Of a stretch of DNA of 64,000 nt, positions 3,050 to 56,478 are shown piece by piece. How positions within the stretch are numbered: the stretch's first letter is position 1; every line of letters begins with the position of its first letter. Source of the stretch: a virus (taxonomy: Duplodnaviria; Caudoviricetes). The notes beneath the pieces were generated by a model. That model was not told the DNA's origin, did not search any database, and saw only the letters and a list, made by a program, of their open reading frames with translations. A program made the translations under genes and the position numbers. The DNA is taken from IMG/VR virus record IMGVR_UViG_3300013947_000021, positions 128,001 to 192,000 of that record. The stretch is one strand, 5' to 3'.

Positions 3050-3868
3050 TTATTTAAAGTATATTGAAGCTAATATTCTATTGAAGAATCTCAGTATATT
3101 TTCATTATAGGATATATCCAATAGATCTTTATCACTCTCTGTTACTAAGTCGGTGTACAATGGCGTTACAATAGAAAAAGATGGATTCAACCTAAACATC
3201 GAACCTGCATTCAATTCTCTATAGTATCCAAGCTTCATATCCTTGTTAATGTATTTCCGGTGTACATTATTCAACAAGTTGATAGCCATCTGGACTCCAT
3301 TCATCTGTATAGTATAACAGAGCTCGGATACAAAGTCTAGCATATATTCTTTATGATAAATATCTGCTTCTCCTAAGCCCTTAGTGTCTAGAACTTCCTT
3401 TTTTGTAACTGGATCATAAAAGTAGAAGAAGTCTACTCCTATCCCAGCATTATTGAATAGCATATTTGGCGTGGCATAGAATGATGTATAGGTTGCAGCC
3501 AATCTAAATACAACTCGTTCAGATACAGCTTGGAATTTCGCCTCCCTTCCTATAGTAGTTATAGCATCATTGCGTATGCTCAATATATCAGAATCTAAAA
3601 ATTCATTTTTTGTAATGAAGAATTTTCGTGCTTCTTCAATACCATTCTTAAGAATTTCGGTAAGATGTGGGTTCTTAGCTCGCATCTTACCCATCATGAT
3701 ATTTCTTTCAAGTTTTGGTGCTTGATACAAATATTGATATAAATCCTCAGAAATTGCATTCTTATCTCTTAGCACATTTATATTTGCTTTAGATAAGTCG
3801 TACTCATAAATTGGTGTATCTATAAGATATTGAATGTTTGCTCTATAAAGAACTTTGTCCCAAATCAT
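3050..3868 (-). CDS. Small DNA-polymerase-palm-like protein (family-A-like motifs)
   Basis: IYEYDLSKAN (motif-A-like) and ILSIRNDAI (motif-C-like) in 272 aa. Confidence 0.45.
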   Translation of the reverse strand: MIWDKVLYRANIQYLIDTPIYEYDLSKANINVLRDKNAISEDLYQYLYQAPKLERNIMMGKMRAKNPHLTEILKNGIEEARKFFITKNEFLDSDILSIRNDAITTIGREAKFQAVSERVVFRLAATYTSFYATPNMLFNNAGIGVDFFYFYDPVTKKEVLDTKGLGEADIYHKEYMLDFVSELCYTIQMNGVQMAINLLNNVHRKYINKDMKLGYYRELNAGSMFRLNPSFSIVTPLYTDLVTESDKDLLDISYNENILRFFNRILASIYFK

Positions 3869-9244: not shown

Positions 9245-9697
9245 TTAACTATCAATTCTTGTAAGCATTACCGTGAGTAAATATAAATACTCATGTAATG
9301 ACTGAAGGAAATATGCATCTTGTTCACTTATAAGTTTATGCCTCTCTTTCAATTTCTCTGGGAACTCAAATATGGATTTTATTGTATATCCAGTTATATA
9401 AGTTCCATTTATTAATGCCTTTAAATACATTAATATAGTATCTACTTCAGTTTGATATTCATCATCTTCTGATAGAAGTTCTCTTATGTATGATTGAATA
9501 TCGATTCGTATTCGATTAATCATTTTCTCTCTAAAATGATTAACAACTTTAGGATCTTTATTTTTCTTAATATTTGTAGAATAAGATATGCAATATCTTA
9601 AAGTAGTATTTGCACTAAGAAAAAGTCCGACCCCTTTATCTGTAAATTTCTTGCTGCTTGTAGTAAACCGATCAAAAATTGCTCCACTTTCTAACAT
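9245..9697 (-). CDS. Hypothetical protein
   Basis: 150 aa, AAGGAG SD. Confidence 0.7.
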   Translation of the reverse strand: MLESGAIFDRFTTSSKKFTDKGVGLFLSANTTLRYCISYSTNIKKNKDPKVVNHFREKMINRIRIDIQSYIRELLSEDDEYQTEVDTILMYLKALINGTYITGYTIKSIFEFPEKLKERHKLISEQDAYFLQSLHEYLYLLTVMLTRIDS

Positions 9698-10507: not shown

Positions 10508-10524
10508 CAACCATATTCGATAAT

Positions 10525-10619
10525 AAAAAATAAATACTAGTAGCAGAAATGCTACTAGTATTTATCAGAAAGTGAGTAAAACGAATGACAGATTTTTAAT
10601 TAGAGGGCAACTTCTAACT
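10525..10619 (-). ncRNA. Candidate small RNA with anti-SD/anti-AUG segment (about 95 nt)
   Basis: AACA-ATATAG-TA promoter 10619-10630, 5' hairpin AGUUAGA/UCUAAUU, UCUGUCAUUCGUUUUACUCACUUUCUG, terminator 10531-10564 with U tract. Confidence 0.5.
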
Positions 10620-12175: not shown

Positions 12176-12601
12176 TTATTTAAGACCAAGTTTATTTTTC
12201 ATAAACTGATATCGCCTATTATGATATATATCTGAATGAGTTGCATACCAAGTATTCATCCATTTTCCGCTTGCATCATTATTCCATGGAGTAATTACAA
12301 GATGGCCATCTGAAATATATCTATGATAGCAATCACCATCAGATGAAAGTATTGAAATATACTTGCTACATGAATGTAGATAAAATCTATATTTATATTT
12401 ATTTGAAATTATAGAATTACGAATATAATATTTTCCATAATATGTTGGTAATGTCCATTCTCCTATAGTATTAAATGTATCACGTAACTTTCCATTAACA
12501 AGACTAAGCATATACTTAATTCTTTTATATGACATAGGCTTGGATTTAATTATAGATGTTTTCATTTCTTTTTCTTGTTTCTTTGCTATTCTCTTATTCA
12601 T
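12176..12601 (-). CDS. Basic hypothetical early protein
   Basis: Start reassigned to ATG 12601 after AAAAGGAG; early motif 12664-12680. Confidence 0.65.
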   Translation of the reverse strand: MNKRIAKKQEKEMKTSIIKSKPMSYKRIKYMLSLVNGKLRDTFNTIGEWTLPTYYGKYYIRNSIISNKYKYRFYLHSCSKYISILSSDGDCYHRYISDGHLVITPWNNDASGKWMNTWYATHSDIYHNRRYQFMKNKLGLK

Positions 12602-36842: not shown

Positions 36843-36947
36843 ATTGGCCCTCCATAAATATTAAATATTATAAATAAGTTAAAATCGGTATTTATACAAA
36901 AAATAAATATAGGCAAGGTTTGCTTGTCTATATTTATTATAATTTAA

Positions 36948-38221: not shown

Positions 38222-38312
38222 AATAAATTTCTCCTAAATAAAATATATTTTTTTTTGAATACATTTTAATTATTTGTATTCAAAAATATAATATCTAATT
38301 ATTTTAATAAAT

Positions 38313-38493
38313 AATAAAAAGAATTAAGGTGCAGCCATCTCAGCCGCACCTTAATCTATTTCAACAAAAGGAGAAATCATGAAACGAAAACAACAAAAAT
38401 TTACACGAACACAAAAGCAATGAGCAAAATAAATGAAAGGAAAACAATGAAAACCAAATCACGAGCAGTAGAGATTGGGACTTAATCCCTACT
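38313..38493 (-). ncRNA. Candidate multi-target anti-RBS small RNA (about 180 nt)
   Basis: AACA-TATTAT-TA promoter 38493-38504; 9-bp 5' hairpin; U/G-rich body with four CAU/anti-SD segments; 14-bp terminator 38323-38355 plus U tract; G-U pairs form only on the minus strand. Confidence 0.7.
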
Positions 38494-38523
38494 AATAATA
38501 TGTTAATATTTTTTCATAAATAT

Positions 38524-38670
38524 AAAGAAAATAATGCAAGATGAATTTCCATCTTGCATTATAATTTTCTGAAAGGACAATAATACATAATAAATTGTAA
38601 CGAAAATAAAATATATGAGGTTCCAAAATCACCAATAGCTATCCCACAAATTAGATGGTGAGTCTAATTT
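38524..38670 (-). ncRNA. Candidate anti-RBS small RNA (about 147 nt)
   Basis: AACA-CTATTA-TA promoter 38670-38681; 5' hairpin AAAUUAGA/UCUAAUUU; U-rich body with UUAUUGUCCUUUCA; terminator 38531-38562. Confidence 0.6.
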
Positions 38671-38765
38671 ATAATAGTGTTTGTAATATATTTTTAAATA
38701 CCAGCCAAATTCTATATGTCCAAACATATCGATAAATATATTTAAATACCGGAGGTGTATATAAT

Positions 38766-39581
38766 ATGGCAAATATGCCTATTGGATATATAATTCTTGA
38801 AGGTGCACCATCTGAAATTCCAGATGCCACTATAATAAAAGAATCTAATAAAAGAGTTATAGGAGAAGGAATTATTCAGACTGCAGAAGAAGAAAATAGA
38901 AATGGAAGATGTTATCTTCAGCCTGATCTTTTAAGAGAAGTTCAGTGTGCAAGAACTAAAGAACTTCTTACTACAGGAAATATGCTTTCTGAGAATGGTC
39001 ATCCTATGGATACATCTATGATTAGGCAGCAGACTATTGATCCTAATAATACTGTCGCTAGATTTCTTAAGATCTGGATGGATGGAAATAATGTAATGGC
39101 TCAATTTAAGGGAACTAATAATGCTAAGGGCGAAGAATTTGATCAGGATCTTAGGGAAGGCGTTCTTCCTAGCTGGTCTCTTAGAGCTCTTGGTTCTCTT
39201 GCAAATAAGGGTGGACGTAATGTAGTTGAAAATCTTAAGGTTATTACCTGGGATAGAGTTATTTATCCGTCTCATCCTCATGCTTATACTACTAGACTTG
39301 TAAGCGAGTCTGCTGGAATTCGTGATAATTCTATTAATACTATGAATAAAAATGGTAAACTCATTCCTATTACAAATGAGTCTGTTGTTTCATATATTAA
39401 ATCAGAATCTGGGAGAATTAAATCTCTTATTGAGCAGGTTGATTTTATGTATGAATCTACTGATATCGTAGATAATGGACGTAGAGTAAGACTTGTTGCT
39501 AAGAATGGTGATATCTTTATGATAAATCTTGAAAATCATGTTGCTAATGAAATTGAAAAATATTGTCTGACTAGAAGATAA
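38766..39581 (+). CDS. Prohead core protease (T4 gp21-like)
   Basis: NRNGRCY, ENGHP, SWSLRALGS, ITWDRVIYPS; promoter AACA-TATCGA-TA 38723-38734. Confidence 0.85.
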   Translation: MANMPIGYIILEGAPSEIPDATIIKESNKRVIGEGIIQTAEEENRNGRCYLQPDLLREVQCARTKELLTTGNMLSENGHPMDTSMIRQQTIDPNNTVARFLKIWMDGNNVMAQFKGTNNAKGEEFDQDLREGVLPSWSLRALGSLANKGGRNVVENLKVITWDRVIYPSHPHAYTTRLVSESAGIRDNSINTMNKNGKLIPITNESVVSYIKSESGRIKSLIEQVDFMYESTDIVDNGRRVRLVAKNGDIFMINLENHVANEIEKYCLTRR

Positions 39582-50046: not shown

Positions 50047-50497
50047 ACCCATTCGCGTCAATCTTATAAAGGAGCTGCATTAGATTATACTTCTCAAAGT
50101 TTTCCGATCCTTTTGGATACTTAAACATTTCTTTTTTAGTTGCTTTTCGAGCATCTATAAAACCTTGTATAAGTTCATATATAGGATTAGGTTTATTAGT
50201 ATGGCGATTAAACATAACACCAGCAGATGTAAATATCGGTTCCCTATCTGCAAGATAATCTGTTAATCTAGTTAATGTAGTTTCTATTTTTGTTTTCTTA
50301 TAATTATTCTCTATTGTAACTGCTTGATCTTTAAAATGTTTTGTAATAGAATTATCTATTACTGCAGCTAATTCTACTTCGGTTAATAATGGAAAATTAA
50401 GATGAAGCATATTCATCATAATATTTTTATATTGCGTAATCATATCATTTTCTGGATATCTAGCTTCTCCAGTTCTAAGTTGATCTCTTAGTTTCAT
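50047..50497 (-). CDS. Family-B DNA polymerase subunit, exon 1
   Basis: RKATKKEM...QLLYKIDANG (first half of motif B); 451+1661 nt gives a 703-aa spliced product. Confidence 0.85.
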
Positions 50498-56002: not shown

Positions 56003-56034
56003 TTATTAAAATTTAATGAAAGGATAATAAAGCA

Positions 56035-56478
56035 ATGAGCAATACTAAAAAATATGTAATAAATACTAAAAATATTTTTGGATTAGAAAAATTTTTGCAT
56101 ATTAGTAAAGATAAATTAGAAGTTCCAGATGATTATTATAGTGATAAAGATGCATGGGATATGATAAATGAAGCGGCACATTTTAGTAACGATCTTTGTA
56201 CACTTAAATTATTATATCCTCATGCAAATTATAAAGATATTCTTATTGCATCATTTCAGGCTAATCCCAAATTACTAGCTTATATTTTGAGCATGTTTAA
56301 AATTTGTAAATCTGAAGGAAATCCAATTGATGCAGATACAATAAATAATTGGATGGCTGAAGCTACAGTAGTAGATGGATCAGCTAATAAAGAATTACTT
56401 GCTAATTCATCAATTATCGATAATAAGTTTCCTAGCAAATCTAATAAGTCATATATACAGAAGGAGATAACAAAATGA
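56035..56478 (+). CDS. Hypothetical protein
   Basis: 147 aa; GAAAGGA SD; initiation region matched by both 38.3-38.7 kb RNAs. Confidence 0.7.
   Translation: MSNTKKYVINTKNIFGLEKFLHISKDKLEVPDDYYSDKDAWDMINEAAHFSNDLCTLKLLYPHANYKDILIASFQANPKLLAYILSMFKICKSEGNPIDADTINNWMAEATVVDGSANKELLANSSIIDNKFPSKSNKSYIQKEITK

Follow-up and report, generated by a model that had tools for sequence, protein, structure and literature searches.

A minus-strand unit at 38315-38493 of the window (the whole 64,000-nucleotide stretch analyzed here, bases 128001-192000 of a single 221,227-bp contig of 29.6% G+C; positions are those of the window unless marked as genome positions) is best read as a selected non-coding RNA gene of about 175 nt, rather than as a plus-strand mRNA or a relic; from comparisons among natural variants, we put the probability of this reading at roughly 85%. 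Leading to it are hairpin pairs that vary by wobble on the minus strand only, conserved blocks set among variable linkers, and the loss of the plus-strand open reading frames (ORFs) among close relatives. Conserved blocks among variable linkers, together with ORFs that are not kept, are what one would expect of a minus-strand RNA that functions through two single-stranded sites.

The phage is a distant AR9-like jumbo phage, judging from its prohead protease (38766-39581), which shows its greatest likeness (25-31% identity) to the proteases of Bacillus phage Goe21 (taken here to be AR9/PBS1-like), Yersinia phage phiR1-37 and the large Staphylococcus phages. The stretch is present in DNA sequencing runs that include bovine-gut metagenomes (no RNA run was among those listed), and contigs nearly identical to it were obtained from gut metagenomes of human and other origin. 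A DNA search of the phage collection returned no match, and the 208-aa neighbor of the unit has no relative in that collection. No tRNA was found in the tRNA search, and the window gave no hit in Rfam 15 at the gathering threshold, the best sub-threshold scores being far below the cut-offs. An exact search of 185,579 prokaryote genomes for block B (Table 1) found no host copy. Two pattern scans of viral_contigs for strings of the unit, one of them with too short a gap limit, had no match; a looser pattern retrieved only contigs of the type of L001, a relative described below, and unrelated antisense gene starts.

Table 1 Features of the spacer and of the small-RNA unit, in window coordinates.
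Feature	Position	Strand	Description
Spacer	38222-38765		544 bp, between the minus-strand 208-aa gene and the plus-strand protease gene
Spacer order, 1st on the minus strand	38681-38670 (late promoter); 38562-38531 (terminator)	-	Late promoter of unit 2, ending at the terminator
Spacer order, 2nd on the minus strand	38504-38494 (late promoter); 38355-38323 (terminator)	-	Late promoter, small-RNA unit (unit 1), terminator
Spacer order, 3rd on the minus strand	38296-38281	-	Early promoter of the 208-aa gene
Unit 2	38524-38670	-	Late promoter, weak 5' hairpin, body, terminator
Late (nvRNAP-type) promoter AACA-TATTAT-T	38494-38504	-	Matches the AR9 late consensus (PMC5312081)
5'-terminal hairpin	38467-38493	-	GUAGGGAUU/AAUCUCUAC; 10 bp, 7-nt loop; begins at +1; -10.2 kcal/mol
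Variable linker 1	38455-38466	-	11/12 columns vary; 9-nt deletion in group B
Conserved block A, GUUUUCAUUGUUUUCCUUUC	38435-38454	-	Complement of GAAAGGAAAACAAUGAAAAC; 1/20 columns varies; mean unpaired probability 0.77
Hypervariable linker 2	38397-38434	-	30/38 columns vary; 14-19-nt deletions in group B; contains start-like strings 2 and 3 of the first-pass annotation
Conserved block B	38363-38396	-	Complement of AACAAAAGGAGAAAUCAUGAAACGAAAACAACAA; contains the anti-early-SD AUUUCUCCUUUU; 1/34 columns varies; unpaired probability ~0.62
Intrinsic terminator	38315-38355	-	~15-16-pair stem; stem-loop 38323-38355 and U tract 38315-38322 (terminator scan)
Early promoter AGATATTAT-N6-G of the downstream 208-aa gene	38281-38296	-	Directly after the terminator; matches the AR9 early consensus (PMC5312081)

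Two promoter grammars have been described for AR9, a late consensus AACA-N6-TA/G and an early consensus ATATTAT-N6-G (AAATATATATTAT-N6-G) (PMC5312081), and both hold in this genome. The late motif was scored as AACA-N6-T(A/G), with its last base as the start site. On the minus strand, the promoter of unit 1 has AACA at 38504-38501, TATTAT as N6, then T and a predicted +1 A at 38493, so that the 12-mer AACATATTATTA is a late promoter of the AR9 type. This promoter and start site had been named in the first-pass annotation, made from the letters alone, as had a 5' hairpin, a U-rich body and a terminator with a U tract, and each of them was found at the coordinates given there; the terminator has a G+C-containing minus-strand stem followed by CTTTTTATTA, as an intrinsic terminator should. 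The promoter is kept in all close variants (N6 being TATTAT or TATTAA), and its counterpart in three more distant relatives, L001, L010 and L124, reads TAACATAT. Genome-wide, AACA-N6-T(A/G) lies 23-36 nt upstream of 43 genes, and the protease promoter AACATATCGATA is identical across relatives L001, L003 and L010. The motif alone carries little weight, since intergenic DNA holds 58 copies against 44 ± 6.6 in shuffles and about one is expected in a 544-bp spacer. The early class is marked by a repeated motif, (A/G)(T/G)ATATTATA..T.TGAA, 20-180 nt upstream of about 25 genes, often with a terminator directly before it.

Some further elements of the same kinds were seen elsewhere on the minus strand. 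At 36843-36947, a terminator after a 205-aa gene is followed by AACTTATTTATA, 26 nt before the start of a 758-aa gene; this is possibly a variant late promoter in which AACT replaces AACA, and a similar string, AACTTATCTA, precedes a 691-aa gene at genome position 202256. At 2535-2911, an early promoter is followed by two small genes (59 aa and 66 aa), both with good SDs, that a simple gene caller had missed.

When the unit was folded, the minus strand was more stable than its shuffles by a z-score of -4.07, compared with -2.31 for the plus strand, and RNAalifold applied to eight variants returned the 5' hairpin and the terminator only, with the middle unpaired. All 25 pairs of the two hairpins (10 and 15) are kept in every one of the eight variants and none is broken. 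Six pairs vary, each between a Watson-Crick and a G·U pair on the minus strand, four of them in the 5' hairpin and two in the terminator stem (A-U to G·U), and two further pairs are fixed as G·U. Three columns vary in the terminator, two at unpaired loop positions and one in a stem pair that alternates between A-U and G·U. Read on the plus strand, all these G·U pairs become A·C mismatches, so that eight of eight differences favor the minus strand. Contigs of two further runs carry 38355 T>C and 38475 T>C, each giving a G·U pair on the minus strand, as well as a loop deletion. An earlier remark that certain G-U pairs form on the minus strand only is thus borne out, and it now extends to six varying and two fixed pairs; covariation in related phages had also been named as evidence to look for, and there the pairs proved to be kept through one-sided wobble changes on the minus strand, with no double compensatory change seen among the eight variants. 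An alignment of three lineages (A2) was too diverged for covariation analysis. A hairpin of this strength (-10.2 kcal/mol) in exact register with +1 is rare in this genome, a stability of -8 kcal/mol or lower being reached at only 2% of 148 motif hits within genes; a hairpin starting exactly at +1 also occurs at three of the genome's other strongest +1 hairpins, two before genes and one orphan.

Distant relatives were of little help for the body of the RNA because their spacers cannot be aligned, and close relatives were therefore fetched through the 90% cluster of the protease, which provided 17 distinct spacers in three groups and eight distinct versions of the unit for alignment (A3). Only 2 of the 54 columns of blocks A and B vary, compared with 47 of 59 in the three linkers, which also carry 9-nt and 14-19-nt deletions and a 2-nt insertion; indel columns are not independent, and counted as events the contrast is about 2 in the blocks to at least 15 in the linkers, with the blocks delimited from the same alignment that was used for their test, though coinciding with two of the start-like strings (1 and 4) recognized beforehand. 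Independent contigs from runs X5 and X8 have the same pattern of blocks and linkers. Each block is complementary to an SD-spacer-AUG string. As in the seeds of small RNAs (sRNAs), these segments are conserved, predicted to be accessible (0.62-0.77), complementary to initiation regions and less variable than the rest of the RNA. The body had been described in the first-pass annotation as a mosaic of four start-like strings: two of these, AAAAGGAGAAATCATG and GAAAGGAAAACAATG, do carry an SD and are the conserved blocks, while strings 2 and 3 are A-rich around an ATG and belong to the hypervariable linker. The match put first there, 14/14 between 38414-38427 and 56029-56042 at ORF 56035, is exact but lies in the part of the linker that is deleted from group B relatives, and is thus probably fortuitous. 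A GCUCGUGA motif shared with L001 was expected to be conserved and was dropped as a candidate, being deleted in group B.

In more distant relatives (L001, L010, L124 and L128), the corresponding position again has a late promoter, a short RNA, a terminator and an early promoter, in that order. The units of L001, L010 and L124 combine the promoter given above with a UCCUUUC motif (the core of block A), a terminator of wholly different sequence and then the early promoter, and have no block B; that of L128 keeps the architecture and has no anti-SD motif. Paired with start sites, the L001 and L010 units are not better than shuffles (z -0.5 and -1.9). By these comparisons, the anti-SD block design appears to be lineage-specific, and its conservation across the family is not supported. 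In L001 (~3590-3620), L124 and L128, the minus strand of the spacer has a conserved GUAAGG(A/U)CCCUUU(A/U)UACAGGGCC at the position of unit 2, which is absent from the window.

The surroundings of the unit have a more eventful history. In the majority of distant relatives, only about 100 nt separate an ~800-aa gene from the protease gene. In L044, a distant relative, the promoter of the ~800-aa gene is closely similar to that of unit 2, AACACTATTATAAATTAGA, and this points to the latter as the ancestral promoter of the gene. Unit 2 varies far more among close relatives than unit 1, and its pairing to start sites is weakly better than that of shuffles (z -1.55 for an 81-nt body and -2.5 for the 108-nt stretch from +1). 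In near-identical phages (L105-L123), the 208-aa early gene is replaced by genes of unrelated length, 201-202 aa (window 38222-38245, left of 38227), with spacer, SD and start region unchanged, so that the recombination breakpoint falls on the start codon; early start regions, being stereotyped, may act as linkers for recombination.

Across the genome, we identified six geneless units that run from a late promoter to a terminator. Four of the six carry a CCUUU/CUCCU motif whose first base is 14-17 nt ahead of the terminator stem; of all 108 terminators in the genome, just 7 are preceded by CCTTT at a distance of up to 28 nt. Unit 3 (genome 202350-202467, minus strand) has the same promoter 12-mer, AACATATTATTA, followed by a 5' hairpin, CCCCUUUC and a 16-bp terminator; lying about 90 nt upstream of the 691-aa gene, it could be an attenuator-like leader. 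Unit 4 (genome 47727-47860, plus strand) extends from a late promoter over about 95 nt to a terminator, ending in CAUUUUAACCUCCUUUU, and its RNA is antisense to an SD and a 16-aa ORF. That ORF is in the leader of an early-type promoter which overlaps, on the other strand, the late promoter of a 506-aa gene. At window 10520-10619 (minus strand), 53 nt that hold no gene lie between a further late motif, AACAATATAGTA, and a 13-bp terminator; this is a candidate for another small RNA, one that lacks an anti-SD motif.

The body of the RNA is predicted to pair with 208 initiation regions (TIRs) of the phage at a mean duplex energy of -16.0 kcal/mol, compared with -13.7 ± 0.47 kcal/mol for 100 dinucleotide shuffles (z -4.9; 0/100 as good) and with -10.9 kcal/mol for the same body against internal coding segments, used as a sense control. 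It has exact 12-mers in common with 13 TIRs, where shuffles have 0.59, and only 1.4% of real gene-start windows match as many TIRs. The proposed complementarity to many initiation regions holds against shuffled controls, and several individual matches listed in its support were recovered: those at ORF 53596 (12/12 and 13/13), ORF 12601 (13/13) and ORF 16869 (12/12) are exact, the gene at 9697, listed for a 15-nt match with one G-U, is among the TIRs that share an exact 12-mer, and the DNA polymerase start at 50497, listed for a bulged match, is among the best duplexes. Because SD spacing varies, the region did not stand out as a cluster when start sites were scored with a rigid position-weight matrix, and a flexible pattern of SD plus ATG was used.

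Predicted pairing is unevenly distributed over the temporal classes. Genes with early promoters reach -19.7 kcal/mol and those with late promoters -15.5 kcal/mol (p = 4e-7); with opening energies included, the values are -10.1 and -3.2 kcal/mol (p = 1.3e-5), with early genes taking 9 of the top 20 places, and for the block B half of the RNA they are -19.1 and -14.25 kcal/mol (p = 4.6e-8). No early preference was found in three other promoter-to-terminator units of this genome. The preference follows from the stereotyped initiation region of the early genes, AAAGGAGAAAUAAAAAUG, with the SD AAGGAGAAAU (for example at 12601, 16869, 46202 and 53596), which is matched by block B. Among late genes, SDs are more diverse and of the GGAGG type. 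Block B contains a perfect 9-nt complement to AGGAGAAAU, the SD of the neighboring 208-aa early gene. The SD-to-AUG spacing in block B is 5 nt, compared with 8-9 nt in most early genes, so that contiguous pairing would usually extend over about 10-13 nt and cover the SD only.

Taken together, a late RNA that silences early translation by pairing through blocks A and B is a plausible and the best available mechanism, which on the modeled duplexes we rate at somewhat under an even chance. The phage non-virion RNA polymerase would start at A38493 from the AACA-N6-TA late promoter and stop at the terminator at 38355-38323, and the 5'-terminal hairpin and the terminator would stabilize the product. 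Late in infection, the RNA would pair through both blocks with ribosome-binding regions of phage mRNAs, its main targets being the early class with its stereotyped SD AAGGAGAAAU, the adjacent 208-aa gene with AGGAGAAAU among them. This would keep 30S subunits from loading or leave the mRNAs open to decay and so help to shut off early proteins, making the RNA a counterpart of T4 RegA/RegB. A more far-reaching version, which we advance only tentatively, makes the late small RNA a class-wide switch that ends translation of many early mRNAs at once, with the RNAs at the same locus in related phages evolving seeds of their own.

Each of the other readings of the locus has some observations in its favor. 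Block B read on the plus strand is a textbook early TIR: AGGAGAAA has 42 copies in the genome, 24 at annotated gene starts and six more followed by ATG at start-like spacing. Likeness to a TIR thus cannot by itself separate an anti-TIR from a TIR, and what decides between them is the evidence on strandedness, the absence of a promoter on the plus strand and the fact that the ORFs have decayed. We consider it improbable that the plus strand is the functional one, with the blocks as real initiation sites of mini-ORFs or a small mRNA and the minus-strand RNA as their cis-antisense regulator, even though AGGAGAAA followed by ATG marks true starts almost everywhere in the genome and unit 4 (genome 47738) has an early promoter, hairpin, SD and mini-ORF on its opposite strand. 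Two SD-plus-ATG strings in 111 nt are also unusual (28 such non-start sites per 20.5 kb of intergenic DNA, both strands), and the hairpin at 38531-38562, with T6 after it in group B, can also terminate plus-strand transcripts. Upstream of 38363, however, there is no plus-strand early or late promoter motif, the sole plus-strand late motif (38392-38403) is inside the first mini-ORF and is not kept in group B, and in a plus-strand RNA both hairpins contain A·C mismatches, three of them in the 5' hairpin of group B. The mini-ORFs themselves (14 aa, 38379-38423; 21 aa, 38420-38485) were rejected as coding, as their frames are not kept among variants: the first is 14, 16, 35, 12 or 2 aa long in close variants (L110 reads ATG AAA TGA), and the second changes in sequence and length and has lost its ATG in run X8. 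L001 has no ATG near GAAAGGAA, and a search for relatives of the mini-ORF peptides found none. Other coding readings were also set aside. A hydrophobic minus-strand ORF of 33 aa, with a GUG start and no SD, has about a one-in-three chance of arising in U-rich RNA, as estimated from composition; it shares its frame with a 17-aa ORF in L001 and not in L010. A type I toxin-antitoxin pair was rejected, the plus-strand peptides being basic and not kept and this hydrophobic minus-strand ORF lacking an SD. Least probable in our estimate is a functionless by-product of cassette turnover, in which terminators insulate, the promoter is left over and the TIR-like strings are recombination scars at early start regions. 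Swaps of early-gene cassettes and differences among spacers do make the locus a turnover hot spot, and this reading builds on the short (~100 nt) interval between the ~800-aa and protease genes in most of the distant relatives, the likeness of AACACTATTATAAATTAGA to the L044 promoter, the replacement of the 208-aa gene by 201-202-aa genes at the start codon in near-identical relatives, and the generic occurrence of terminator-plus-early-promoter modules in the genome. Conservation specific to the blocks argues against it for unit 1: neutral DNA would not yield 2/54 versus 47/59 variable columns or stem differences that favor one strand in 8/8 cases, nor would it maintain the exact register between promoter and hairpin or, in four further lineages, the same architecture built on hairpins of wholly different sequence.

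It is unlikely that the RNA is real and selected but acts otherwise than by pairing in trans, its blocks binding a protein or the ribosome (an S1- or Hfq-type binder of U-rich RNA, or a decoy) or working in cis as a leader-attenuator. In the cis version, block B would mask the SD AGGAGAAAU in late read-through transcripts of the downstream early operon, to which it offers its perfect 9-nt complement; in AR9, some genes are known to carry a late as well as an early promoter (PMC5312081), unit 3 (genome 202456, minus strand) is placed like a leader before the 691-aa gene, and the arrangement of promoter, hairpin and terminator before an early promoter is kept even in L128, whose body has no anti-SD. 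Against this, read-through is not expected of so strong and strictly conserved a terminator, it is hard to see a use for a read-through mRNA that cannot be translated, the matches to many other early TIRs exceed what one cis target needs, and no protein-binding motif was recognized in the RNA, nor anything in Rfam.

The current explanation of temporal control in jumbo phages invokes two phage RNA polymerases, each with its promoters; we know of no account of how AR9-like phages switch off early proteins after the early phase. If the proposed mechanism is true, a conserved late RNA directed at the ribosome-binding site that early genes share would bring post-transcriptional regulation into this control, and it would be a rare example of RNA-based trans regulation that a virulent-type phage applies to its own genes. 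The analysis also illustrates that an RNA gene can be told from a small ORF that resembles it by comparing natural variants in metagenomes, with no need for expression data.

The RNA would be an SD-occluding sRNA, of a known kind, in an unusual setting. Trans-acting sRNAs that occlude the SD are established in Firmicutes, among them RNAIII and RsaE/RoxS of S. aureus and SR1 of B. subtilis. With these, the phage RNA shares small size and predicted stability, a terminator, pyrimidine-rich single-stranded motifs complementary to the SD, many predicted targets and the lack of a long antisense overlap. It has no relation to them in sequence or structure (no Rfam hit), and it comes from a jumbo phage of virulent type and from a late promoter for a phage polymerase. 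Unlike their C-rich loops, its motifs are U-rich (CCUUU/CUCCUUUU) and lie in unpaired linkers, and each block also covers the AUG. AR9 shares its promoter grammar with this phage and makes late antisense RNAs; those described lie opposite annotated genes, and the paper reports no independent small RNA that carries anti-SD blocks (PMC5312081). The c4 antisense RNA of phages P1 and P7, which blocks the ribosome-binding site of ant mRNA (PMC12197685), is likewise a phage-encoded RNA, and the one described here is predicted to repress phage genes in the same way, by pairing around the ribosome-binding site. However, c4 is an RNA of temperate phages that is released by processing of a longer transcript and serves immunity by acting on a specific target in its own operon, whereas the present RNA is a separate late unit with a whole temporal class as its predicted target. 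In T4, early mRNAs are inactivated at SD and initiation regions after the early phase, the endoribonuclease RegB cutting within GGAG and RegA acting as a translational repressor (PMC1702504, PMC3014915). The outcome proposed here would be the same, brought about by an RNA where T4 uses proteins, and the link to RegA/RegB is one of functional analogy only.
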